This document shows positions 17,864 to 28,412 of a stretch of 64,000 nucleotides of DNA, one piece after another. The notes under the pieces were generated by a model. The model ran no database searches. It was not told the DNA's origin and was given only the letters and a program-made list of their open reading frames with translations. The stretch is taken from contig OY776562.1 in NCBI GenBank assembly GCA_963675785.1, positions 288,001 to 352,000 on the forward strand. The letters are read 5' to 3'. Source of the DNA: Anaerolineae bacterium. Lineage in GTDB: Bacteria; Chloroflexota; Anaerolineae; UBA1429. Every line of letters begins with the position of its first letter. Position 1 is the stretch's first letter. The translations under genes were made by a program, and so were the position numbers.

Positions 17864-19603
17864 ATGATCAAACGATTATTAGCTAGTGTTAGAGAATACA
17901 AAAAAGATTCGATTCTTGCGCCGGTTTCGGTGACCCTCGAAGTGGTTTTGGAGGTCATCATCCCGTTGGTGATGGCCAACCTGATCGATTATGGCATCAA
18001 CGCAGGCAATCTGAACTATATCTGGCGAACCGGTGGCTTATTGGTCTTAGCTGCCATGTTCTCGCTGCTTTTTGGCGCACTGGCGGGGAATTTCGCCGCC
18101 AAAGCCGCTGCGGGCTTTGCCAAGAACCTGCGGCAAGACATGTACTATAATGTGCAGAATTTCTCGTTTTCCAACATTGACAAATTCTCCACAGCAAGCC
18201 TGGTTACACGCTTGACGACTGATGTGACCAACGTGCAGAACGCCTACATGATGATTGTCCGCGTGGCGGTGCGCAGCCCAGTCATGCTGATTTTCTCGCT
18301 TATCATGGCGTTCAGTATCAACAAAGAGCTTTCATTGATCTATCTCGCCGCTATCCCCTTTTTGGGCTTTGGTTTGTATCTTATTATGAGCCATGCGCAT
18401 CCCATCTTTGAGCGTGTGTTTCGTACATACGACAAGCTAAACAACATGGTCCAAGAGAACCTACGCGGCATTCGCGTGGTCAAATCTTTCGTAAGAGAAG
18501 ATCACGAAGAGAAAAAGTTTGGCGATATTTCAGAGAGAATCTACAACGACTTTTCCAAGGCCGAGAAACTGCTTTCCTTCAATATGCCGCTGATGCAGTT
18601 CTGCATGTATGCCTGTACACTGCTGGTCTCGTGGTTTGGGGCCAAATTGATCGTTGGCGGATCGATGAGCACTGGCCAGTTGATCAGCCTCATCTATTAT
18701 GCGATGCAAATCCTGATGAGCCTGATGATGCTCTCCTTTGTGTTCGTGATGATTACGATTTCGCGGGCCTCGGCAGAAAGAATCTGTGAGGTGCTCGCAG
18801 AAGTGCCTGATCTGCACGATAACGACGCCCCGAATTTTCATATTGCGGATGGCTCGATTCGGTTTCGGGATGTGGATTTCAGCTATGCCAAGGATAAAAA
18901 CAGGTTGTGTCTCCGTCGGGTGAATCTGGATATCGAATCGGGGCAGACCATTGGCATTATCGGGGGAACGGGTAGCTCCAAAACAACGCTGGTGCAGCTC
19001 ATCCCGCGCCTCTACGATGTGACGGATGGTGCTGTGCTGGTGGGCGGCGTGAATGTGCGCGATTACGATATCGAGGCACTGCGCCAGCAGGTGGCCATGG
19101 TGCTGCAAAAGAACACGCTGTTTTCTGGCACGATCAAGGAAAACCTTCGATGGGGTGATGAGGATGCCTCGGATGAAGAGTTGGTGCGCGTTTGCAAGCT
19201 GGCTCAGGCGGATGATTTCATTCGCAGCTTCCCGGATGGATACGATACCCATATCGAACAGGGTGGCACGAACGTATCTGGTGGGCAAAAGCAACGATTG
19301 TGTATCGCCCGGGCGTTGCTGAAAAAGCCCAAGATATTGATTTTGGATGATTCGACCAGTGCCGTGGATACCAAGACGGACGCCCAGATTCGCAAGGCGT
19401 TCCGCGAGGAAATACCGGATACGACCAAGCTGATCATCGCACAGCGCGTGGCCTCGATCGAGGATGCTGACAAGATCATTGTGATGGAAGATGGTCGGAT
19501 TGACGCTGTGGGAACACACCAAGAGCTTTTGGCGCATAACCCGATCTACCAAGAGGTCTATCATTCACAGGTACGGGGCGCGAGCTTGAATGGGGCGGCA
19601 TGA
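17864..19603 (+). CDS. heterodimeric ABC exporter, subunit 1 (TMD+NBD, degenerate site)
   Basis: TM domain, GGTGSSKT, VSGGQKQR, ILDD Walker B and IAQR switch (degenerate). Confidence 0.93.
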   Translation: MIKRLLASVREYKKDSILAPVSVTLEVVLEVIIPLVMANLIDYGINAGNLNYIWRTGGLLVLAAMFSLLFGALAGNFAAKAAAGFAKNLRQDMYYNVQNFSFSNIDKFSTASLVTRLTTDVTNVQNAYMMIVRVAVRSPVMLIFSLIMAFSINKELSLIYLAAIPFLGFGLYLIMSHAHPIFERVFRTYDKLNNMVQENLRGIRVVKSFVREDHEEKKFGDISERIYNDFSKAEKLLSFNMPLMQFCMYACTLLVSWFGAKLIVGGSMSTGQLISLIYYAMQILMSLMMLSFVFVMITISRASAERICEVLAEVPDLHDNDAPNFHIADGSIRFRDVDFSYAKDKNRLCLRRVNLDIESGQTIGIIGGTGSSKTTLVQLIPRLYDVTDGAVLVGGVNVRDYDIEALRQQVAMVLQKNTLFSGTIKENLRWGDEDASDEELVRVCKLAQADDFIRSFPDGYDTHIEQGGTNVSGGQKQRLCIARALLKKPKILILDDSTSAVDTKTDAQIRKAFREEIPDTTKLIIAQRVASIEDADKIIVMEDGRIDAVGTHQELLAHNPIYQEVYHSQVRGASLNGAA

Positions 19604-21503
19604 TATGAAAAAGAACACTGTAAACAACATGCAAAAAGGCAGAGGGCCCGTTAGCTGGAAGGCGACAGGGCGCTTACTTGCTTATATCATCAGGGACTAC
19701 AAGCCCCAGTTCATCATCGTGGTGATCTGCATTCTGGCCAGCACTTTGGCGGGTGTGGCGGGCTCCCTATTTCTGCAAGTCTTGATCGATGACTATATCA
19801 CGCCACTGCTAAAGGCGGCTAACCCAATATTCTCGGGGCTGCTGCGGGCTATTGCGATCATGGCCGGGATCTATTTGGTGGGGGTTGTGACGTCACTGTT
19901 TTACAACCGCACCATGGTCACCATCTCGCAAGGCATTTTGAAGAAAATACGCGACGAGATGTTTGCCCATATGCAGGCGCTGCCCATCAAGTATTTCGAT
20001 ACGCATACCCACGGCGACGTAATGAGCCGCTATACGAATGACACCGACGCGTTGCGAATGATGATCTCGCAAAGCGTTCCGCAGGTACTAGCGGCTTTGA
20101 TAACGGTCATCTCGGTGTTCTTTGCCATGCTGTTCCTTAGCCCTTTGCTGACACTGTTGGTGGTGATTTGGGCGGGGCTGATGCTGACCATTGCCAGCAA
20201 AATCGGCGGCAATTCAGCGACCTATTTTGTCGCACAGCAGAGCTCGATTGGCGTGGTCAATGGCTATATCGAGGAGATGATCAACGGGCAAAAAGTTGTC
20301 AAGGTATTCTGCCACGAGGATGAGGCCAAAGAGGGATTCAATGTGCGCAACGAACAGTTGTGCGAAAACTCTACTCAGGCCAATAAGTTCGCCAACATCC
20401 TGATGCCTATTATGGGCAACATGGGGCACTTGTTGTACGTACTCGTTGCCATTGCCGGCGGCGCCCTGGCGATCGAGGGGATTGGTGGATTGACGTTGGG
20501 CGCCATTGCCTCGTTCTTGACGCTGGCACAGAACTTTACGCGGCCCATCAGCCAGATTTCACAGCAGGTGAACTCGATTGTGATGGCGTTGGCGGGCGCA
20601 GAGCGCATCTTTAACCTGATGGATGAACAATCAGAGCAGGACGATGGCTATGTGACGCTGGTGAACGCCAAGCGCGAGGGCGACGAACTGGTGGAGAGTG
20701 TAGAAATGACCGGCCTGTGGGCCTGGAAACACCCGCACAAGGCCGACGGCACGGTGACCTATACCGAGTTGGCTGGCGACGTACGCCTTTTCGATGTGGA
20801 TTTCAGCTACGAGCCCAACAAGCCGGTACTGAAGGATATCTCGCTCTATGCCAAGCCGGGGCAAAAGATCGCCTTTGTGGGGGCTACGGGCGCGGGCAAG
20901 ACGACTATCACCAACCTCATCAACCGCTTTTACGACATCGAGGATGGCAAGATTCGCTACGACGGCATCAATATCAACAAGATCAAAAAAGATGACTTGC
21001 GCCGCTCGCTGGCCATGGTGCTGCAGGATACCAACTTGTTCAGCGGCACGGTGATGGAGAACATCCGCTACGGACGGCTGGATGCGACCGACGATGAGGT
21101 GATCCACGCGGCGCAGTTGGCCAATGCCCATGATTTCATCATGCGGCTGCCCAATGGCTACCAGACGATGCTTTCGGGCGACGGCAGCCAGCTCTCGCAG
21201 GGGCAGCGGCAGTTGCTCTCCATTGCGCGGGCGGCGGTGGCCGATCCGCCGGTGATGATTTTGGACGAGGCCACCTCCAGCATTGATACGCGTACCGAGG
21301 CGCTGGTGCAGCAGGGCATGGACAGCCTGATGGAGGGTCGCACGGTGTTCGTCATCGCCCACCGGCTCTCCACCGTGCAAAACTCTCAGGCCATTATGGT
21401 GCTGGACCACGGGCGCATCATCGAGCGCGGCGACCACGAGTCGCTGATTGCCCAAAAGGGCGAGTACTATCAGCTCTATACGGGTGCTTTAGAGTTAGAA
21501 TAG
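19590..21503 (+). CDS. heterodimeric ABC exporter, subunit 2 (TMD+NBD)
   Basis: GATGAGKT, LSQGQRQ, ILDEAT, IAHRL. Confidence 0.93.
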   Translation: MGRHDMKKNTVNNMQKGRGPVSWKATGRLLAYIIRDYKPQFIIVVICILASTLAGVAGSLFLQVLIDDYITPLLKAANPIFSGLLRAIAIMAGIYLVGVVTSLFYNRTMVTISQGILKKIRDEMFAHMQALPIKYFDTHTHGDVMSRYTNDTDALRMMISQSVPQVLAALITVISVFFAMLFLSPLLTLLVVIWAGLMLTIASKIGGNSATYFVAQQSSIGVVNGYIEEMINGQKVVKVFCHEDEAKEGFNVRNEQLCENSTQANKFANILMPIMGNMGHLLYVLVAIAGGALAIEGIGGLTLGAIASFLTLAQNFTRPISQISQQVNSIVMALAGAERIFNLMDEQSEQDDGYVTLVNAKREGDELVESVEMTGLWAWKHPHKADGTVTYTELAGDVRLFDVDFSYEPNKPVLKDISLYAKPGQKIAFVGATGAGKTTITNLINRFYDIEDGKIRYDGININKIKKDDLRRSLAMVLQDTNLFSGTVMENIRYGRLDATDDEVIHAAQLANAHDFIMRLPNGYQTMLSGDGSQLSQGQRQLLSIARAAVADPPVMILDEATSSIDTRTEALVQQGMDSLMEGRTVFVIAHRLSTVQNSQAIMVLDHGRIIERGDHESLIAQKGEYYQLYTGALELE

Positions 21504-21551
21504 GGTTTAATGCGAACGGCCTTCTTCCCGTCAGGGAAGGAGGCCGTTTTT
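21396..21551 (+). repeat. direct repeat copy 1 (ABC gene 3' end + terminator; attL-like)
   Basis: aligns with 22690-22833; identical 28-bp core AAAAGGGCGAGTACTATCAGCTCTATAC at 21454-21481. Confidence 0.92.
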
Positions 21552-22763
21552 ATGTTGTTGCTATTGATTGACCCAAGGGTATCTGGCATCAATATAAGCC
21601 AGCCAGTCGCTCATGCCGCAGAGTTGATGAGGCGATAGATGACCAAAGAGTTGCTCAGTGCTGATGCTGATGAATCGATCTTGAGGCTGCACCAGCCGTT
21701 TCCACACATCAGTTGCCTTGTCGCCTAGATTTCTCAAATCCGGTGAAGTTACAGTGTCAAAATCTTTGTTATGCGCTGGCGAGATGTGTAACACACTGAC
21801 TTGATTAGCCCCTAATTCGTGAGCGAGTTCCATCTCATGAGCGAGGAACTGCTGGCGCATGAGTTGGTAAAACGGTTCGTAGAACTGGGATTCAAAACAG
21901 GCAAGTAAGCCTTTGTTAATAGGACAATCATTGCGTTCGAAAAGAGGCTTGTAGATGAGCGTACGGTCAGTACCACTCTTGGCGTAGTGAAGGGAATTGC
22001 TGCTGTAGGATTCTGTGTATTTCCATTCGATGAGCACAGCTTGACGCATTCCATCCGTGCGTTCAAAGAGGACAATTGCATCAGCACTGGTAAAATTGGC
22101 TCCACGGGTCCGCTTGCTGCCTTTGCGTACCCGTTCTCCTAAATAGTTCTCTGCGCCAATCCATTCAAAGGCTACATATTGTCCGTCTTCTACTGGCAGC
22201 ATTTGTTTAATTGTGGGAAAGACGCACTGTAATATCGTTCTTAGAGCTGTAGGCTCATGGGCAAAGGGGAATAGAAAATTCACACAGCAGACCTGAGAGT
22301 CGCATAAATGATTGCTGGGCTTGTAGTCTTGCCCATCATGCCATTTGATTTTATTCGCAGCAAAGTAGGCTGGCGCGCTTTGACGGATGCAGGGAAAGAG
22401 ATTCTCCTCGGCGCAGTCACGGGGTAGGCAGAATGAGCGAAGTTTGCCGCGATAGCTGCCGTCGGCTCTGGCCGCATCAGAGAAATACGGTGAACTGGCG
22501 CGAAAAGCGGTAAGGCGAACTTTTTCCTGTTCTAAAAAGATACCCATTGATTCCTCCAGCCAGATTTGACTCTTATATAGTAGCTACAAGATATCGCTCT
22601 TTCTATTTAACAGTACAGAACTATTATCGTAAACTATTAATTTGTACCTATTATAGATTACGATATTTCATATACAACTAGTTATCAGCATGGTGCCGAC
22701 CACCGAGTGCGGCGACCACGAATCGCTGATTGCTGAAAAGGGCGAGTACTATCAGCTCTATAC
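21454..22763. mobile_element. putative 1,282-bp integrated mini-cassette carrying one nuclease gene, no integrase
   Basis: bounded by direct repeats of the target-gene 3' end; AT-richer cargo on the opposite strand. Confidence 0.7.
21561..22547 (-). CDS. PD-(D/E)XK nuclease-like protein (PGN_0703-like putative restriction endonuclease)
   Basis: NHLCDSQVCCVNF, TSADA...LIEWKYTE, YQLMRQQFLA; GGAGG RBS. Confidence 0.7.
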   Translation of the reverse strand: MGIFLEQEKVRLTAFRASSPYFSDAARADGSYRGKLRSFCLPRDCAEENLFPCIRQSAPAYFAANKIKWHDGQDYKPSNHLCDSQVCCVNFLFPFAHEPTALRTILQCVFPTIKQMLPVEDGQYVAFEWIGAENYLGERVRKGSKRTRGANFTSADAIVLFERTDGMRQAVLIEWKYTESYSSNSLHYAKSGTDRTLIYKPLFERNDCPINKGLLACFESQFYEPFYQLMRQQFLAHEMELAHELGANQVSVLHISPAHNKDFDTVTSPDLRNLGDKATDVWKRLVQPQDRFISISTEQLFGHLSPHQLCGMSDWLAYIDARYPWVNQ

Positions 22764-22833
22764 CGGCGCTTTGGAGCTAGAATAGGACTTGGTGCAAAGG
22801 GTCTCCTTCCCGTGAGGGGAGGAGACCCTTTTT
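22690..22833 (+). repeat. direct repeat copy 2 (orphan ABC 3' end + terminator; attR-like)
   Basis: encodes ECGDHESLIAEKGEYYQLYTGALELE* versus ERGDHESLIAQKGEYYQLYTGALELE*; core 22736-22763; terminator 22796-22833. Confidence 0.92.
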
Positions 22834-23005
22834 GTTGTTTCATCATTTCGAAAAATTCTTCTGTTATATATTGACATAAGTCTGTGTCTGGTGGTAATAT
22901 TACTTAGGTATAAAAGCCTATTAAAGTGGCTTGGATAACTAGTGGGCTGTTTTGCTCCTGTCAAATTGCCTCTAATTCTCCATCTATAGATGGTAGGAGA
23001 ATAAA

Positions 23006-24598
23006 ATGAAATTTACTTTTTATTTGTTCAATGAGAGCGTTACAGAATTCGACAAGGCTATCAGAACAGGAAAAATTGAAGGAACTGAACCTTTTCTTCT
23101 AGTAGTTCCTAATCATGAATTACCTTTTGACTGTCAAGCTTATTTTCAGCAAAACAAAGCGACACCGCCGCGATGGTATGGTTATATTTCGGGTGCATTC
23201 AAGTTTGATCAGGCGGTCATGAATCAAGCTAATTCATTTCTATTGCTCATTAGGGTTAAAAGTAGAATATTTGCAATTACAATGGGGTATGGTTTTGCAG
23301 CTATTGATCGTGATTTTCTCGAACGCGGTTTTGGACTAAAAGTAGTCCTAAATGAAATAGATCCATCCCGCATCAAAAGCATTGACACGCGAGTAATAGA
23401 TACGACCACGAAGCAGAAACGGGTGCTTCTGAATAAAGATAGTGAATTGTACGATTTCGATTTTGACATGGAAGAAGAATTGTTAAGTGTAATCTCTGGT
23501 GTGCCAAGCAATATTGATCTGGCCAATAAGTTGACAGGGGCTGATTCTTTGAGTGTTACCTGTGATGTTCCACTAGAGGATCTGGGTAAGAAGTGTGAAC
23601 AGTTACTTACGTCATTCTATAAGGAAAATTACAAAGAGTCTTTCGGATTTATTGATAATCTTAGAGTTATAAAGGTTCCGTCACTATGTGAACAACTTGA
23701 TAAATTGCTATTACAGGCAATTGAAAATCGCATTGAAACAAAGCTTATGGTGGCATATCCGGAAATTGATACTCCTTCTCGTGTTGATGAATATCGCATT
23801 TCGACGACTAGTAGACGTACGCGGTCGGCAGATGAGCTTGATGTTAAGGCAATATACAGTTTTTTGGACGAGTTCTATTCCGAAAGGCAGATTCCTGATC
23901 TGCAAAAGATAACTGTCCAAGGTTTTGATTCAGAAGGCAATGTGGTTACAGGTAAGTATAAACTGAGAGACTACTTGACTTTTGAAACAGAACTGGACGA
24001 AGGCAGATATGTTTTCACTTTGAATAGATGGTTTCAGATAGATAGCAACTATAACGATGAAGTAAGTCGTTACATGAGTAACATAGGAATTATCCCTAAC
24101 CTAGATGGTATCTACTTGCCTCCAATTGTGTCTGGCGACCCGGAAGGGGATTATAATGAAAAAGTATCAAACGATCTCGGTTATTTGCTCTTAGACAAAA
24201 AGAATTATCCGGCTGGAGGAAGAAGCAAGATCGAAATTTGTGATCTCTATACTCCAGAAGGAGATTTAATCTGTGTAAAAAAATACAACGGGTCATCTAC
24301 TTTGAGTCATCTATTCAGTCAAGGTCTAGTATCAGCAAGATGTCTGGTTGATTTGGAAAGGTATAGACAGTTTTTCCGCACCAAGATACCTGAGAATTGG
24401 GATAGTACTCGGATAAGTGAAACTGATTTTGATCCTAAAAAAGTGCGCATTGTGTTTGCAGTTGCTTGTGCAAAAAAAGGTAGTATTATCGACTCTCTAC
24501 CTTTCTTTAGCAAAGTGAATCTTCTTCATGCACTTAGAGAGATTGAAAGACTAGGTATAGCTGTTTGTTTGTGTAAAATCGAGTTTATTGATTCTTGA
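23006..24598 (+). CDS. DUF6119 / TIGR04141-like sporadically distributed protein
   Basis: FAITMGYG, ERGFGLKVVLN, EGDYN, IEICDL, VKK...SSTLSHLFSQG.VS, LPFFSKVNL; AT-rich; own TTGACA promoter at 22871. Confidence 0.8.
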   Translation: MKFTFYLFNESVTEFDKAIRTGKIEGTEPFLLVVPNHELPFDCQAYFQQNKATPPRWYGYISGAFKFDQAVMNQANSFLLLIRVKSRIFAITMGYGFAAIDRDFLERGFGLKVVLNEIDPSRIKSIDTRVIDTTTKQKRVLLNKDSELYDFDFDMEEELLSVISGVPSNIDLANKLTGADSLSVTCDVPLEDLGKKCEQLLTSFYKENYKESFGFIDNLRVIKVPSLCEQLDKLLLQAIENRIETKLMVAYPEIDTPSRVDEYRISTTSRRTRSADELDVKAIYSFLDEFYSERQIPDLQKITVQGFDSEGNVVTGKYKLRDYLTFETELDEGRYVFTLNRWFQIDSNYNDEVSRYMSNIGIIPNLDGIYLPPIVSGDPEGDYNEKVSNDLGYLLLDKKNYPAGGRSKIEICDLYTPEGDLICVKKYNGSSTLSHLFSQGLVSARCLVDLERYRQFFRTKIPENWDSTRISETDFDPKKVRIVFAVACAKKGSIIDSLPFFSKVNLLHALREIERLGIAVCLCKIEFIDS

Positions 24599-24676
24599 TT
24601 CTTTTTATGGTTAGGCATATATCTTGAAAATTGACCCTCTCTCCTTCCTTTCCAACTGCCATCAAGATAGCACGTC

Positions 24677-24712
24677 AAGGGGCTAAAGTTTGTCGGCTTT
24701 AGCCCCTTTTTT
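24677..24712 (+). terminator. intrinsic terminator after the DUF6119 gene
   Basis: AAGGGGCTAAAG-N8-CTTTAGCCCCTT followed by T tract. Confidence 0.8.
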
Positions 24713-24917
24713 CTGCCCGGAATTTCGGGTGCAAGTGCAATCTCTATGAAATTGATGCAAAATGACGGTAGTCTATCAAATATCCTGTTAAGCGATATGC
24801 GAGCAGCAAGGTTCATTACGATACTTGGTGCGATTGAGGATGGGATGGTTCATTCAGAGCATTCACTAGAGCCAAGTCTTCTCAAGTTGTATTTTATTCA
24901 TCACTCTGGAGGTATCT

Positions 24918-25913
24918 TTGCAAACCAACACTCTTTTCTCTTCCCTTTCTTTCAACCTGCCCATCGAGGCCGTGCTGAGCGGTTTGGCCGAGGGCACCGT
25001 ACACCGCGGTCAGAGCGGCATAGCGGTGCGCTGTGGCCATCGGCATTACCTGGCGGGCGAGGACCCCGCTTTTGAGGCTGCCTACTGCGCCGAGTTCTTG
25101 GTGGGCCTGGGCAGCAGCATGTTCGTGCTCTGCGGCGAGGAGGCCCTGCTGCAGCGCCTGGCCCAGGGGCCGTTGGCCGAGCGTTACCCTCTGCTAGACT
25201 GGCGCGGCTATTACGCGTTGGATACGGCCGACGCGCCCCCGCCCCAACCTCTGCTCGCTGGTTATGCCCTCGTGCCGGTAGATGCGGCGCTGCTGGCGCG
25301 GCAAGAGCTGGCTGGTCTGGATGATCTGCGCGAAGAGATGGTCTCGGAGCGGGTCAGCGTGGCGGACTTTTTGGCGCGCAGCTTTGGCCTGGCCTTGCTG
25401 CATGGCGATGAGTTGGTGGGCTGGTGCCTCTCCGAATACAACACCGCCACCCGTTGCGAGGTGGGCATTGGTGTGGCGGAAGGGCACCGTCGCCAGGGAT
25501 TGGCCACTTGTATGGCCCGTACCTTTGGCCAGTTGGCTCGCCAACGGGGCATCGAGCACATCGGTTGGCATTGCTGGAGGAGCAACCAGGCTTCAGCGAA
25601 CACGGCGCTGGCTGCCGGTTACCAATCAGTTTGTGCGTATCCGGTACTGTTTGGCTATGGCGATAATACCCTCAATTTGGCGGTCAATGGCAATATGTGC
25701 CTGCGGCGCGGAGAAGCTGAGGCTGCCGTATCCTGGTTCGGGCGGGCTTTTGCGGCGGGTAACCCGGTCTGGGCATTGCTGCCTGCGACACGGGCCTGTT
25801 TGCGATCCGGCGACGCCGAGCAGGCGCGCGTTTATTTACAGCGGGCCCTGGATAGTGGGGCGGTCGACGGTAAGACACTGGCGGACGATCCCGAGTTGGC
25901 CGATCTCCTCTAA
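24918..25913 (+). CDS. GNAT family N-acetyltransferase with C-terminal TPR-like helices
   Basis: EVGIGV..HRRQGLA, WHCWRSNQAS; GGAGG RBS; GC-rich. Confidence 0.8.
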   Translation: MQTNTLFSSLSFNLPIEAVLSGLAEGTVHRGQSGIAVRCGHRHYLAGEDPAFEAAYCAEFLVGLGSSMFVLCGEEALLQRLAQGPLAERYPLLDWRGYYALDTADAPPPQPLLAGYALVPVDAALLARQELAGLDDLREEMVSERVSVADFLARSFGLALLHGDELVGWCLSEYNTATRCEVGIGVAEGHRRQGLATCMARTFGQLARQRGIEHIGWHCWRSNQASANTALAAGYQSVCAYPVLFGYGDNTLNLAVNGNMCLRRGEAEAAVSWFGRAFAAGNPVWALLPATRACLRSGDAEQARVYLQRALDSGAVDGKTLADDPELADLL

Positions 25914-26008
25914 CCGGCTGCTACTCTCCTCAAAGACGGGCTTGCCAATCCTCAATTTCCAGCTAGCATGTGCACAGTCTGATATATGTATGAAAAGGGG
26001 GGTGGCCT

Positions 26009-27025
26009 ATGTCGAGCATAAACGAGACGACCCGGCGCGAACGCGTTTTGTGTGCACTGCATCATCAACAACCCGATGTCTGTCCCTGGCAAATCAACCC
26101 GACGGTGGATGCCTATGCTCGGGTGGCCGAGTACCTGGGCGATGAGGACTGGATTGAGGGCGTGGGCAATCACCTGGTTTCTTATGAGGATGGTTGCTTT
26201 ATCGAAGAACGTACCGGCTTTTGGCGTGACCAGTTTGGCATCCTTTGGAATCGCACCATCGACAAGGACATTGGCAACGTCGACCAGTTACTGCTGCCCG
26301 AGGCTAGCCTGCAGGGTTACGCATTCCCTCGGCCAGATTATGCGCGAAATGCTGCCCACTTGCAGTGCCTGGTGGACGAGCACCCCGATCGTTTTCGTAT
26401 AGCCAGCATTGGGTTTTCCATGTTCGAACGCGCCTGGACGTTGCGCGGCATGGAGAACCTGCTCATGGATATGGTATTGCAGCCCCAGTTCGTCGATGCC
26501 TTGCTGGATCGCATCCTCGAATATGACTTGGCGGTGCTGGAGCACATGCTCACCTACGACGTAGACTGCATCCGTTTTGGCGATGACTGGGGCCAGCAAA
26601 AGGGGCTGATCATGGGGCCCAAGCTGTGGCATCGCTTCATCAAGCCGCGTATGGCTGCGCTCTATGGGCGGGTCAAGTCGGCCGGGCTGTATGTCATGCA
26701 GCATTCTTGTGGTGATATACAGGGCCTCTTCCCCGATCTCATCGACATGGGCTTGGACATCTTTGAGACATTCCAGCCCGAGGTGATGGACGTGGATTTC
26801 TGCAAGCGAGAGTATGGCCAGCACCTCACCTTTTATGGCGGCATCAGCACTCAGCAGGTAATGCCGCGGGTTAGCCCTGTGGAGCTGTACGCCCACGTGC
26901 ACGACATGATCCGGCGCATGGGTGTGGATGGCGGCTATATTGTGGCACCCACTCATGGCGTGCCCCGCGATGTATCGCCAGAGAACATCCTGGCCTTTGT
27001 GGATGCCGTGCAGAATCAACCCTGA
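26009..27025 (+). CDS. uroporphyrinogen decarboxylase-like / MtaA-CmuA family protein
   Basis: FERAWTLRGMEN, GDDWG.Q, HSCG, GGISTQ, GGYIVAPTH. Confidence 0.88.
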   Translation: MSSINETTRRERVLCALHHQQPDVCPWQINPTVDAYARVAEYLGDEDWIEGVGNHLVSYEDGCFIEERTGFWRDQFGILWNRTIDKDIGNVDQLLLPEASLQGYAFPRPDYARNAAHLQCLVDEHPDRFRIASIGFSMFERAWTLRGMENLLMDMVLQPQFVDALLDRILEYDLAVLEHMLTYDVDCIRFGDDWGQQKGLIMGPKLWHRFIKPRMAALYGRVKSAGLYVMQHSCGDIQGLFPDLIDMGLDIFETFQPEVMDVDFCKREYGQHLTFYGGISTQQVMPRVSPVELYAHVHDMIRRMGVDGGYIVAPTHGVPRDVSPENILAFVDAVQNQP

Positions 27026-27253: not shown

Positions 27254-27287
27254 GGTGAGCTTTTCCTTATGCGAAGGCGGTGTGAGG

Positions 27288-28412
27288 ATGAGTGATGATC
27301 AATACGATTCGCTTGATGATGAACACCGATTGCTTGAGGAAGGTGTTTTTTGCATCAAGTATTCCCGTTACGTGCAGCTAACACGCCAAAACGGCTCGCC
27401 AGTCTGTGCGGAATTTGATTGCCCTGAGCACCGCAAGTGTCTATGGGGTATCGGACTGGAAAAAGCAGAGAGGATAAGGCAAGAAGATCGAATCTGGCTC
27501 TTTGTGCTCATCGGAGTAATCATCCTTGCAGTGTCTCTTGTAGTTGGTTTCAGCCCGCGCTTGATGTCCAATGAAAGACTGCTCAAACGTTTGAGCAGCG
27601 AGGATGAAGGCGTTCAGTTAAATGCTGCTGTCGAATTAGCAGATAGAGGGAATCCTATAGCACTAGAGATATTAGAGGCCTTTCTTGATTCAGATTCGTG
27701 GGAAGAGCGTCGCGATGCTGCTGAGGCGTTGGGACATCTTGGTGATAAACAGGTGACCCCCGCTCTATGTGAACTCCTCAATGACAGCAATACGGATGTT
27801 CTAGAGGCTGTGTCCACAGCACTTGCAGAACTCGAAGATGAGACAGCCTTCGAACCACTTTTGCAGGCATTGAATGAAAGCCCTCTCAAAGATCGTTGGG
27901 CGATTGCAAGCGCATATAGCCAGATTCAAGATGAAAGAGCTATACCCGCTCTCATCGATGCGCTAGGCAGTGACGATCTCGTGACACATCATCGTGAGTG
28001 TCTGCGGGATGCTCTGTCCAATCAGGGGGAAAAGGCGATTGAAGCCCTTGTCGATTCTGTTTTAGCCGGCGGCACAGGTGCTTGGGTATTGGCACAAATC
28101 GAGTTGCAGACCGATAGTGAGATCGCGCAGATGCATGAAGCGATTACGAACCGAGATCTGGAAACGTTGGCTATTATTTATCCTTTCTTTCTGTATCTCG
28201 ATCAGGATAATGACGGGGATGATATCGACGAGAGCCTTAGTGCAGCTGAGCAAGAGATTCTGGCAGAAGCGCTTCTTGCTTGTGGGGATAAAGAGATGGC
28301 AGAGTCTTTTGCCAATTTTCACAACGAAATCTTTGGGGGAGGCAAAATCTTGCAAGATGCAGCAGACGAATGGGCAGATCAGCATGGATATATTTTCATA
28401 TTGAGTGATTGA
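27288..28412 (+). CDS. membrane-anchored HEAT/PBS-lyase repeat protein
   Basis: repeated R..AAEALG.LGD / A.PALIDAL units; one TM; N-terminal Cys cluster. Confidence 0.8.
   Translation: MSDDQYDSLDDEHRLLEEGVFCIKYSRYVQLTRQNGSPVCAEFDCPEHRKCLWGIGLEKAERIRQEDRIWLFVLIGVIILAVSLVVGFSPRLMSNERLLKRLSSEDEGVQLNAAVELADRGNPIALEILEAFLDSDSWEERRDAAEALGHLGDKQVTPALCELLNDSNTDVLEAVSTALAELEDETAFEPLLQALNESPLKDRWAIASAYSQIQDERAIPALIDALGSDDLVTHHRECLRDALSNQGEKAIEALVDSVLAGGTGAWVLAQIELQTDSEIAQMHEAITNRDLETLAIIYPFFLYLDQDNDGDDIDESLSAAEQEILAEALLACGDKEMAESFANFHNEIFGGGKILQDAADEWADQHGYIFILSD

Follow-up and report, generated by a model that had tools for sequence, protein, structure and literature searches.

A displaced gene end and possible gene accretion behind an ABC-exporter gene of an Anaerolineae bacterium

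In the genome of an Anaerolineae bacterium (assembly GCA_963675785.1), the last codons and the terminator of an ATP-binding cassette (ABC) exporter gene occur twice, 1,282 nucleotides (nt) apart, with a single nuclease gene between the two copies. The question that this locus raises is how a gene came to lie between two versions of its neighbor’s end. We addressed it in a 64,000-nt stretch of contig OY776562.1 (positions 288,001 to 352,000 of the forward strand), which we refer to as the window and whose own numbering is used throughout, except where another locus is named. An initial annotation of this DNA had proposed a self-contained, 1,282-nt mobile nuclease element. What we observed instead is a larger strain-variable site, at which two unrelated genes are stacked behind the ABC terminator with a relic of the gene end between them. 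We give about an even chance to the reading that this relic is the footprint of gene accretion at a variable site, brought about by a Campbell-type homologous insertion-duplication.

Two diverged ends of one gene

The gene concerned encodes the second subunit of the exporter and is itself intact (19590..21503, plus strand; Pfam ABC_membrane 1.1e-45 and ABC_tran 2.1e-29). Its end takes part in a direct repeat between 21419-21551 and 22701-22833, which is 133 nt long at 84% identity with a spacing of 1,282 nt (BLAST E-values: 9e-32 when 24 kb were searched against themselves, 8.8e-35 when the whole genome was searched). The homology reaches back to 21396/22691 over a 12-nt gap in the downstream copy, and forward to about 21559/22840. 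The repeated segment corresponds to the final 108 nt of this gene plus the terminator: copy 1 (21396..21559, plus strand) holds these 108 nt, the intergenic stretch and terminator 1, while copy 2 (22691..22840, plus strand) is a truncated relic of a diverged ABC 3’ end, with the 12-nt gap, two residue changes and a terminator of its own. Repeat and Pfam searches thus confirmed that the gene end and terminator recur 1,282 nt on and flank one reverse-strand PD-(D/E)XK nuclease gene (21561..22547), as the initial annotation had described. No further copy of the 1,282-nt cassette was found in the 3.2-Mb genome.

When the last 27 codons of the two copies are compared, 8 of 81 nt differ (C/T, G/A, C/T, C/G, G/C, T/C, A/G and T/C), six of these differences being synonymous and two leading to replacements. 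Both replacements (R to C at 21426 and Q to E at 21453) lie, like the 12-nt deletion, 5’ of a block of 28 nt that is identical in the two copies (21454..21481 and 22736-22763, plus strand); this block codes for part of KGEYYQLYT, and a crossover may have taken place in it. The four differences located 3’ of the block are all synonymous. Folding and a terminator scan showed that terminator 1 (21514..21551, plus strand) has a 16-pair stem, the loop GTCA and a T run, and that terminator 2 (22796..22833, plus strand) has a 16-pair stem, the loop GTGA and a T run. Each folds to -31.2 kcal/mol (z -6.7 and -5.5, respectively), and three pairs of the stem are substituted on both sides, i.e., compensated. 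The hairpins flanking the cassette are perfect terminators. In all these details, the core, the coding differences, the position of the deletion and the preserved pairing of both stems, the initial annotation was reproduced. Because of the synonymous changes, the compensated stems and the equal folding energies, each copy evidently evolved as a functioning gene end with its terminator; by this sequence pattern, the two are alleles of separate lineages and not a local duplicate that decayed in place.

The base composition changes in steps along the locus, with a GC content of 0.555 in the ABC gene, 0.483 in the nuclease gene, 0.30 in the spacer upstream of the nuclease gene, 0.559 in the relic, 0.379 in the following DUF6119 gene and 0.635 in the acetyltransferase gene of the right-hand flank, around a genome mean of 0.536. 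Copy 2 is therefore a segment of GC 0.559 between two low-GC segments. A third copy of the repeat was looked for behind the DUF6119 gene, and none was found. A diversity-generating retroelement was also considered as the source of the differences and rejected: the mismatches are not confined to adenines, and no reverse-transcriptase family occurs among the open reading frames (ORFs) of the window.

Alleles of the site in public sequencing runs

Ten public sequencing runs matched the stretch, six of them holding at least half of its words, and the contigs of four were compared with it. In the run that is probably the window’s source (X5), one 52,701-nt contig spans 18000-27000 without a difference. 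In a run of another study (X8), a 3,281-nt contig of depth 11.4 spans 21484-24764 without a difference, and the contigs flanking it have depths of 60-68 and about 1% differences from the window. Another contig of this run (depth 29.3) joins 21551 directly to 24735, skipping 3,183 nt, and probably represents an allele without 21552-24734. A third form (depth 26.2) has one extra base at 21532 and continues past 21555 into sequence unlike the window. Since the depths of the three forms at 21532 sum to the total of 66.9, three alleles coexist in X8: one without 21552-24734, one with other content there, and the window’s own.

The unit that varies between strains is thus probably a 3,183-nt island (21552..24734), comprising the nuclease gene, the relic and the DUF6119 gene together, and not the 1,282-nt cassette. 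The empty allele that the initial annotation had called for does exist, but what it appears to lack is this longer stretch. The two island genes are unrelated, low in GC, sporadically distributed and stand-alone, and they sit behind the ABC terminator with the relic between them.

These data also bear on two simple explanations of the repeat, namely a local tandem duplication that diverged in place, or an assembly artefact mixing two strains. Two similar copies lying close together are what either would leave, and several haplotypes do coexist in X8. However, a divergence of 16% with synonymous and compensatory changes fits poorly with a local duplication, as does the finding that strains with about 1% divergence vary in whether they have the island. 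Mis-assembly, which the initial annotation had named as a possible refutation, is contradicted by the X5 and X8 contigs, i.e., single contigs of two studies that span the junctions and agree with the window exactly. We therefore regard both explanations, even taken together, as very improbable.

The contigs of X8 further suggest which of the two gene ends is the local one. One of them (contig 27, depth 29) lies over 21341-21496, where it has 11 differences, and stops at 21496, and the window-like contig 28 starts at 21484. With words of 31 letters, the last private letter of contig 27 would be 21466 and the first private letter of contig 28 would be 21514, so that the other X8 alleles would equal the window over approximately 21467-21513, where copies 1 and 2 differ at 8 positions. 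Alleles without the island would then carry an end of the copy-1 type, and copy 2 would be a foreign relic of a lineage about 16% diverged, implying a history in two lineages. The change from unlike to like would fall at 21466/21467, inside the 28-nt block; this test for a parental switch works from the assumed word length and the contig ends. To the left of the switch, the window diverges from the other X8 alleles by about 10% over 21362-21466 (about 105 nt) and by about 0.8% further left. The initial annotation had the gene end rebuilt by the element; the contig ends point the other way, with copy 1 as the probable local type and copy 2 as the probable foreign one.

Of note, the 3’ end of the ABC gene (21362-21513) is unusually polymorphic in the public runs, the rest of the gene being about 1% different. 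At least three versions of this segment are found in X8, and another is found in X10 at about 21410-21416 (GGG CGC vs GGA GCG and GGC GCG).

The remaining runs gave partial views of the site. A groundwater metagenome (X1, depth 2-3) contains 151-nt pieces identical to the nuclease gene (21556-22371) and a piece at 21316-21466 with one difference, and it has no piece at 22515-26126. These pieces hint at a nuclease-only allele, gaps in contig cover not being evidence. In X10, a 1,219-nt contig (contig 12) aligns to 21889-22662 only and then continues unlike the window. Among the 40 nearest genomes there was no close relative of the locus; the best match had 74% identity and was confined to the ABC ATPase part, and no genome of the same genus was among them.

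Insertion-duplication and its competitors

Insertion-duplication (Campbell-like) of circular DNA through one region of homology is known from non-replicating plasmids. As at the present locus, it results in an intact copy, the insert and a truncated second copy, both copies being hybrids, and it takes place without a dedicated recombinase. The present case would differ from plasmid integration in being natural, in having ends that are 16% diverged and a single cargo gene, and in recurring at several genes. Here, an intact and a 5’-truncated copy of one segment bracket the insert, and so they do at three other genes and on two metagenome contigs. The Campbell architecture proposed by the initial annotation (intact end, cargo, truncated diverged copy) therefore stands, whereas the self-contained mobile nuclease element that had been built on it does not.

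The course of events that we propose would start from a small circular or looped-out DNA composed of the ABC 3’ end, its terminator, the nuclease gene and the promoter spacer. A single crossover would have joined this DNA to a chromosomal ABC 3’ end that was already trailed by the DUF6119 gene. The crossover would have occurred in or near the 28-nt block, by host homologous recombination, with the ABC 3’ end as the only homology. Its product would be an intact hybrid gene end (copy 1), with the old end (copy 2) pushed downstream. The X8 data would place the crossover in a lineage that had a copy-2 end and the DUF6119 gene: that lineage’s own end would have been of the copy-2 type, and the incoming copy-1 end, terminator 1 and nuclease gene would have come from the local type. 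The composite could later have moved between strains as one block via homologous recombination in its flanks, and this import could have left the foreign patch of about 105 nt at 21362-21466.

We searched the genome for the same layout by self-comparison, by a scan of 2,516 crude gene ends and by a protein-level scan, and we searched 176 metagenome loci from other organisms (1.22 Mb, 941 gene ends). The layout, which consists of an intact gene end, one or two genes and a diverged intergenic relic, was found again at three further genes of the genome and on two contigs from metagenomes. At a TRAM / tRNA U5-methyltransferase gene (G000:C1:69753-72404, L229), the unit is 1,431 nt and the relic 72-74% identical; the cargo is a 365-residue protein with a weak nucleotidyltransferase match (GC 0.451), and low-GC DNA continues past the relic. 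At an M20 peptidase gene (G000:C1:2100981-2103721, L230, L232), the unit is 1,258 nt and the relic 85-86% identical; the cargo is a 343-residue protein of no known family (GC 0.457), and the relic has an in-frame stop, has kept its terminator hairpin and is followed by no second cargo gene. A weaker fourth case, the only addition from the protein-level scan, is a GH4 glycosidase gene (G000:C1:2499701-2504665, L234), whose last ~57 nt recur at about 80% identity in a unit of about 1,851 nt. Its cargo consists of an AraC/GyrI-like (Cass2) regulator in reverse orientation together with a hexapeptide acetyltransferase, and two genes of 38% GC come after the relic.

On the metagenome contigs, the end of a DeoC-family aldolase gene recurs 1,239 nt downstream at 91% identity (L040:277-1605), with two small ORFs as cargo, and this relic lies just upstream of the contig’s own REase-ARP gene. 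The end of an S-adenosylmethionine (SAM)-dependent methyltransferase gene recurs 1,174 nt downstream at 75% identity (L041:6761-8031), with a reverse EAL-domain gene as cargo. In most cases, the homology of the relic ends at or just past the stop codon, a feature that insertion-duplication would explain. Pfam, PADLOC and NCBIfam gave nothing useful on the cargo genes of these other cases.

Most of the genome-wide relic matches fall in multi-copy families or in a CRISPR array. Three further candidates were rejected as relic cases (L140, which has intergenic repeats, L054, which is multi-copy, and L158). The protein-level scan was swamped by neighboring paralogues; a match near 658 kb turned out to be an ABC paralogue, and one near 1636 kb is an unclassified 5’ fragment. 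The CRISPR array itself lies outside the window (G000:C1:1073435-1082810); its 29-nt repeat occurs at least 145 times, at a period of 61 nt, and it overwhelmed the repeat scans.

The recurrence helps to weigh insertion-duplication against a second route, the illegitimate joining of two occupied alleles. In that scenario, a resident [ABC, terminator 1, nuclease] would have met a linear fragment with a partial ABC end, terminator 2, the DUF6119 gene and the right flank; the right side would have been joined by homology and the left end illegitimately at 22690/22691, making copy 2 the fragment’s ragged end. This would suit island-less alleles with an apparent copy-1 end, in that copy 1 may be native and copy 2 imported with the DUF6119 gene, which it adjoins. 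It would also agree with the lack of a third repeat behind the DUF6119 gene, and with the low-GC DNA that follows the relic at the tRNA-methyltransferase and GH4 loci as well. However, it leaves the ~105-nt, ~10% diverged patch, which ends inside the 28-nt block, unexplained. It misfits the M20 locus, where the relic still has a terminator and no second cargo gene lies behind it, and it requires the nuclease-only allele at which the X1 pieces hint. The M20 locus needs no further event under insertion-duplication and is that mechanism’s plain product. On balance, we consider illegitimate joining rather unlikely.

Several points nevertheless weigh against insertion-duplication. Recombination between stretches of 133 nt at 84% identity is inefficient, and a crossover in another lineage, followed by import of the composite, would be an added step. 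The joint of 21551 to 24735 is found in only one contig, which aligns at 88% likeness and whose shorter side has 30 letters, and our use of contig ends assumes that Logan contigs are built from 31-letter words. The compared contigs of X8 and the other runs showed neither a circle junction nor an allele with a length difference of exactly 1,282 nt, a weak negative in that contigs drop rare forms. Moreover, when the positions of the 21 mismatches were shuffled 20,000 times over the 133 nt, an identical run of 28 nt arose in 9.3% of cases (P 0.093). The peptide encoded by the block is also widely conserved: when a back-translated pattern of KGEYYQLYTG was scanned against genome contigs, it matched at least 119 stretches of other genomes (Bifidobacterium, Clostridia, Bacilli and others), these matches being from unrelated taxa, with no alleles of this species among the matches listed. 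Because runs of this length are not exceptional in shuffles and the encoded peptide is widespread, the 28-nt block is not statistically special and is weak evidence for a recombination core. Finally, nine genes of the genome have an intergenic copy of their 3’ end downstream, as compared with nine and eight in matching 5’-end scans, such that there is no formal enrichment, and the recurrence rests on few clean examples, with only three, perhaps four, clean cases among the genome-wide hits.

Another possibility, and the main idea of the initial annotation, is that the 1,282-nt unit is a cis-mobilizable element with attL and attR, moved by a site-specific recombinase encoded elsewhere. Direct repeats of the target’s 3’ end do flank a unit without an integrase and share a 28-nt identical stretch, and a parallel is offered by the tandem accretion described for cis-mobilizable elements (CIMEs) and Dehalococcoides islands (PMC5704250, PMC3146451). 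However, the homology extends not just 3’ of the block but also some 45-60 nt on its 5’ side, unlike a plain core with a rebuilt end, and the block is both non-significant and part of a conserved coding motif. No excision product was seen in the contigs, the only indel seen being the one of 3,183 nt. Furthermore, no 10-mer is common to the three repeat pairs of this genome that were compared, so that one recombinase cannot serve all of them; the single trans-acting enzyme suggested by the initial annotation is thus unlikely, and we judge the cis-mobilizable element as a whole to be improbable. Under insertion-duplication, the lack of a common core would be expected, and a single crossover driven by homology needs no special enzyme.

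No recombinase or transposase family was found in the island or among the 43 large ORFs of the window, in agreement with the initial annotation’s remark that the cassette is free of an integrase, and outside the window the genome encodes two Xer-like tyrosine recombinases. The best score for the integron integrase TIGR02249 in the genome was 77.8 bits, vs a cut-off of 265, and the best attC-like site in the window scored 6.0, vs a control maximum of 6.5. An integron gene cassette was therefore rejected, the window having no attC site above the control maximum and the genome no integron integrase above the cut-off.

How does the locus compare with known systems of gene capture? CIMEs are defined in PMC5704250, which also covers accretion in tandem at a target gene’s 3’ end, and the Dehalococcoides ssrA islands described in PMC3146451 are arranged in tandem with 20-bp repeats of the ssrA end between them, some having no integration module. 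In these systems, modules are stacked behind one gene with 3’-end direct repeats between them and some are without integration genes, as here, and Dehalococcoides, like this genome, belongs to the Chloroflexota. In contrast, those elements have short conserved att cores and a known serine or tyrosine integrase; the repeat reported here is ~150 nt long and 84% identical, and neither an integrase nor a common core was found.

The element e14 and phage 21 integrate in a protein gene of E. coli, icd, and supply a substitute 3’ end. Like them, the present locus has a surrogate 3’ end that keeps the gene intact, a displaced end that remains as a fragment, and mostly silent differences; unlike them, it measures 1.3 kb with one gene and no integrase found, whereas e14 and phage 21 are tens of kb long and carry their own. 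Integron cassettes resemble it as single-gene modules of ~1 kb, and relatives of the nuclease are partly flanked by attC-like sites, yet the flanking repeats here are copies of a gene end and the window has no attC. Orphan toxin-immunity modules behind cdiA and rhs genes arise when a new 3’ end and its partner enter by recombination in a conserved stretch, with the old ends piling up downstream, where each begins with a piece of the conserved stretch. In those genes the exchanged 3’ end is the variable payload, while here the last 15 residues are unchanged and the payload is a separate gene. The present anatomy thus differs from the known systems in that no integrase or conserved core was found, the repeat is long and diverged, and the modules are very small. 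A narrow literature search found no paper on this anatomy among those listed, and we do not claim its absence from print.

Bacterial genomes commonly have variable hotspots that contain no mobile-element gene, and the ways in which genes come into them are largely a matter of conjecture. At the present locus, the entry left a legible scar in the form of a diverged, still foldable copy of the neighbor gene’s end and terminator, and the same scar is found at several other genes. If it stems from one-sided homologous insertion-duplication, it represents a concrete, testable route by which single conflict genes are stacked behind housekeeping genes, and a relic of a gene’s 3’ end 1-2 kb downstream is a signature by which such events can be searched for. 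A bolder extension, which we offer tentatively and consider unlikely, is that Anaerolineae-like bacteria harbor integrase-less mini-cassettes of ~1.2-1.4 kb with one or two genes, whose only means of attachment would be the surrogate last 60-190 nt of a host gene, and which would loop out, travel, re-insert by a single crossover and stack. If true, such mini-cassettes would be an integron-independent route for shuffling the same cassette gene pool (nucleases, acetyltransferases, regulators, EAL proteins and small ORFs).

The island genes and their surroundings

We further characterized the nuclease. The gene (21561..22547, minus strand; 328 residues) encodes a stand-alone PD-(D/E)XK protein of the REase-ARP family (PF22558, 161.1 bits vs a cut-off of 27, E 5.3e-47; PDDEXK_13, 55 bits). 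D156, E174 and K176 do not vary across an alignment of 30 sequences and, judging by the motif, probably form the catalytic triad. H70, H80, C82, C87 and C88 are also invariant in the 30 relatives, and residues 70-88 may be a metal-binding insert. A structural model of the protein (predicted local distance difference test, pLDDT, 76.6; predicted template modeling score, pTM, 0.80) has low confidence over residues 71-84. Compared with PDB representatives, the model finds its best matches almost exclusively in PD-(D/E)XK nucleases (CdiA-CT, N.BspD6I, Can2, FokI and NucS-like), the matches being weak (Z 4 to 5.9).

The family is large (1,866 proteins at E <=1e-3 among 2,665 candidates) and conserved, with best non-self relatives at 69-71% identity. 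The gene is sporadic: of 401 genomes of the class, 6 have it, one of them being the genome studied here. No family occurs in more than four loci among the 333 ORFs that adjoin the nuclease in 80 metagenome loci, i.e., no recurrent neighbor was found there that could be the partner behind the name ‘ARP’. The neighbor clusters with four loci all come from L071, L073, L074 and L080, which have one 86-nt flanking repeat and the gene order in common. In the five other genomes of the class that have the gene, the neighbors are unrelated (IMPDH, Fe-ADH or SocA genes), and none of these loci showed a repeated gene end.

Direct repeats flank the nuclease relatives in 11 of 76 testable metagenome loci and are, on inspection, mostly integron attC sites. 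In a crude attC scan, 10 of 77 loci scored at least 8 on the downstream side of the relatives and 10 of 75 did so on the upstream side, vs none of 240 in-gene windows; these windows are the real control, the test being symmetric and opposite-strand controls therefore not independent. Examples of relatives in integron-like cassette arrays are L055:40-2330, L035:6440-8085, L083:6760-9045 and L073:90-2600, where attC-type imperfect palindromes (e.g., GCCTAAC ... GTTAGCC) flank the genes; in L055, three copies bracket two cassettes. A different arrangement was seen at L069:530-1630, where the leader and beginning of the downstream formyltransferase-like gene recur as a 40-nt copy (82%) ahead of the nuclease start codon, making this a 5’-side duplication beside an inserted nuclease gene.

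Since the relatives have varied neighbors and, in some metagenome loci, are themselves integron cassettes, we take the nuclease to be cargo and not the agent of movement. This bears directly on a homing-type scenario, also put forward in the initial annotation, in which the REase-ARP protein would cut empty ABC alleles and repair would copy the gene in together with a recoded target. The nuclease gene does adjoin a recoded copy of its neighbor’s end, and the raised divergence in the ABC 3’ end of other strains is what co-conversion tracts would give. However, homing leaves no duplication, and here one of 150 nt is present. In addition, the neighbors differ among the 80 metagenome loci and the five genomes, partly in integron cassette arrays, and the same anatomy occurs with non-nuclease cargo (the EAL protein, the regulator with the acetyltransferase, and the small ORFs). 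Homing is thus highly implausible in our view, and the result corrects the idea of nuclease-driven mobility. In function, the protein is probably a conflict or defense nuclease.

The second cargo gene (23006..24598, plus strand) encodes a 530-residue DUF6119 / TIGR04141 ‘sporadically distributed’ protein, matched over its full length (E 9e-144 and 1e-133). Among 42 genomes of the family it is present in one, the genome itself. Neither the nuclease nor the DUF6119 protein matched any family of PADLOC-DB 2.0 (0 in each case), and sequence searches of solved structures returned no match for either. Database searches at the locus gave one distant match among plasmids (40% identity) and none among phages. 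In the literature, no paper with ‘REase-ARP’ and none relevant on DUF6119 was found.

Between the nuclease gene and the relic lies the AT-rich spacer (22548..22690), the presumed promoter region. CTATTA occurs in it three times (22621, 22634 and 22648), as first reported in the initial annotation, and no minus-strand promoter in it reached the scan threshold. Upstream of the DUF6119 gene is a promoter-like site, TTGACA-18-TAATAT with TG (22871..22900, plus strand). This is a consensus match only, with 10 of 12 matches, and the best of eight sites, where shuffles average 7.7 sites. Behind the gene lies terminator 3 (24677..24714, plus strand; -23.2 kcal/mol).

To the left, the locus is preceded by the gene for exporter subunit 1, with a membrane domain and an ATPase (17864..19603, plus strand; Pfam ABC_membrane 3.9e-44, ABC_tran 8.2e-30). 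For GAPDH, a housekeeping protein encoded in the window, the closest named relatives come from Anaerolineae and Chloroflexi MAGs, at about 76% identity. To the right of the island, an X8 contig of depth 30.8 skips a further 117 nt (24777..24893; joint of 24776 to 24894, with 35 letters on its shorter side), and a GNAT acetyltransferase gene of host-like GC follows (24918..25913, plus strand). About 2.5 kb to the right of the island, a gene at 27255-28412 (GC ~0.48) encodes a HEAT/PBS-lyase repeat protein with weak PADLOC matches (HEAT-ARM_XIII, E 2e-12).

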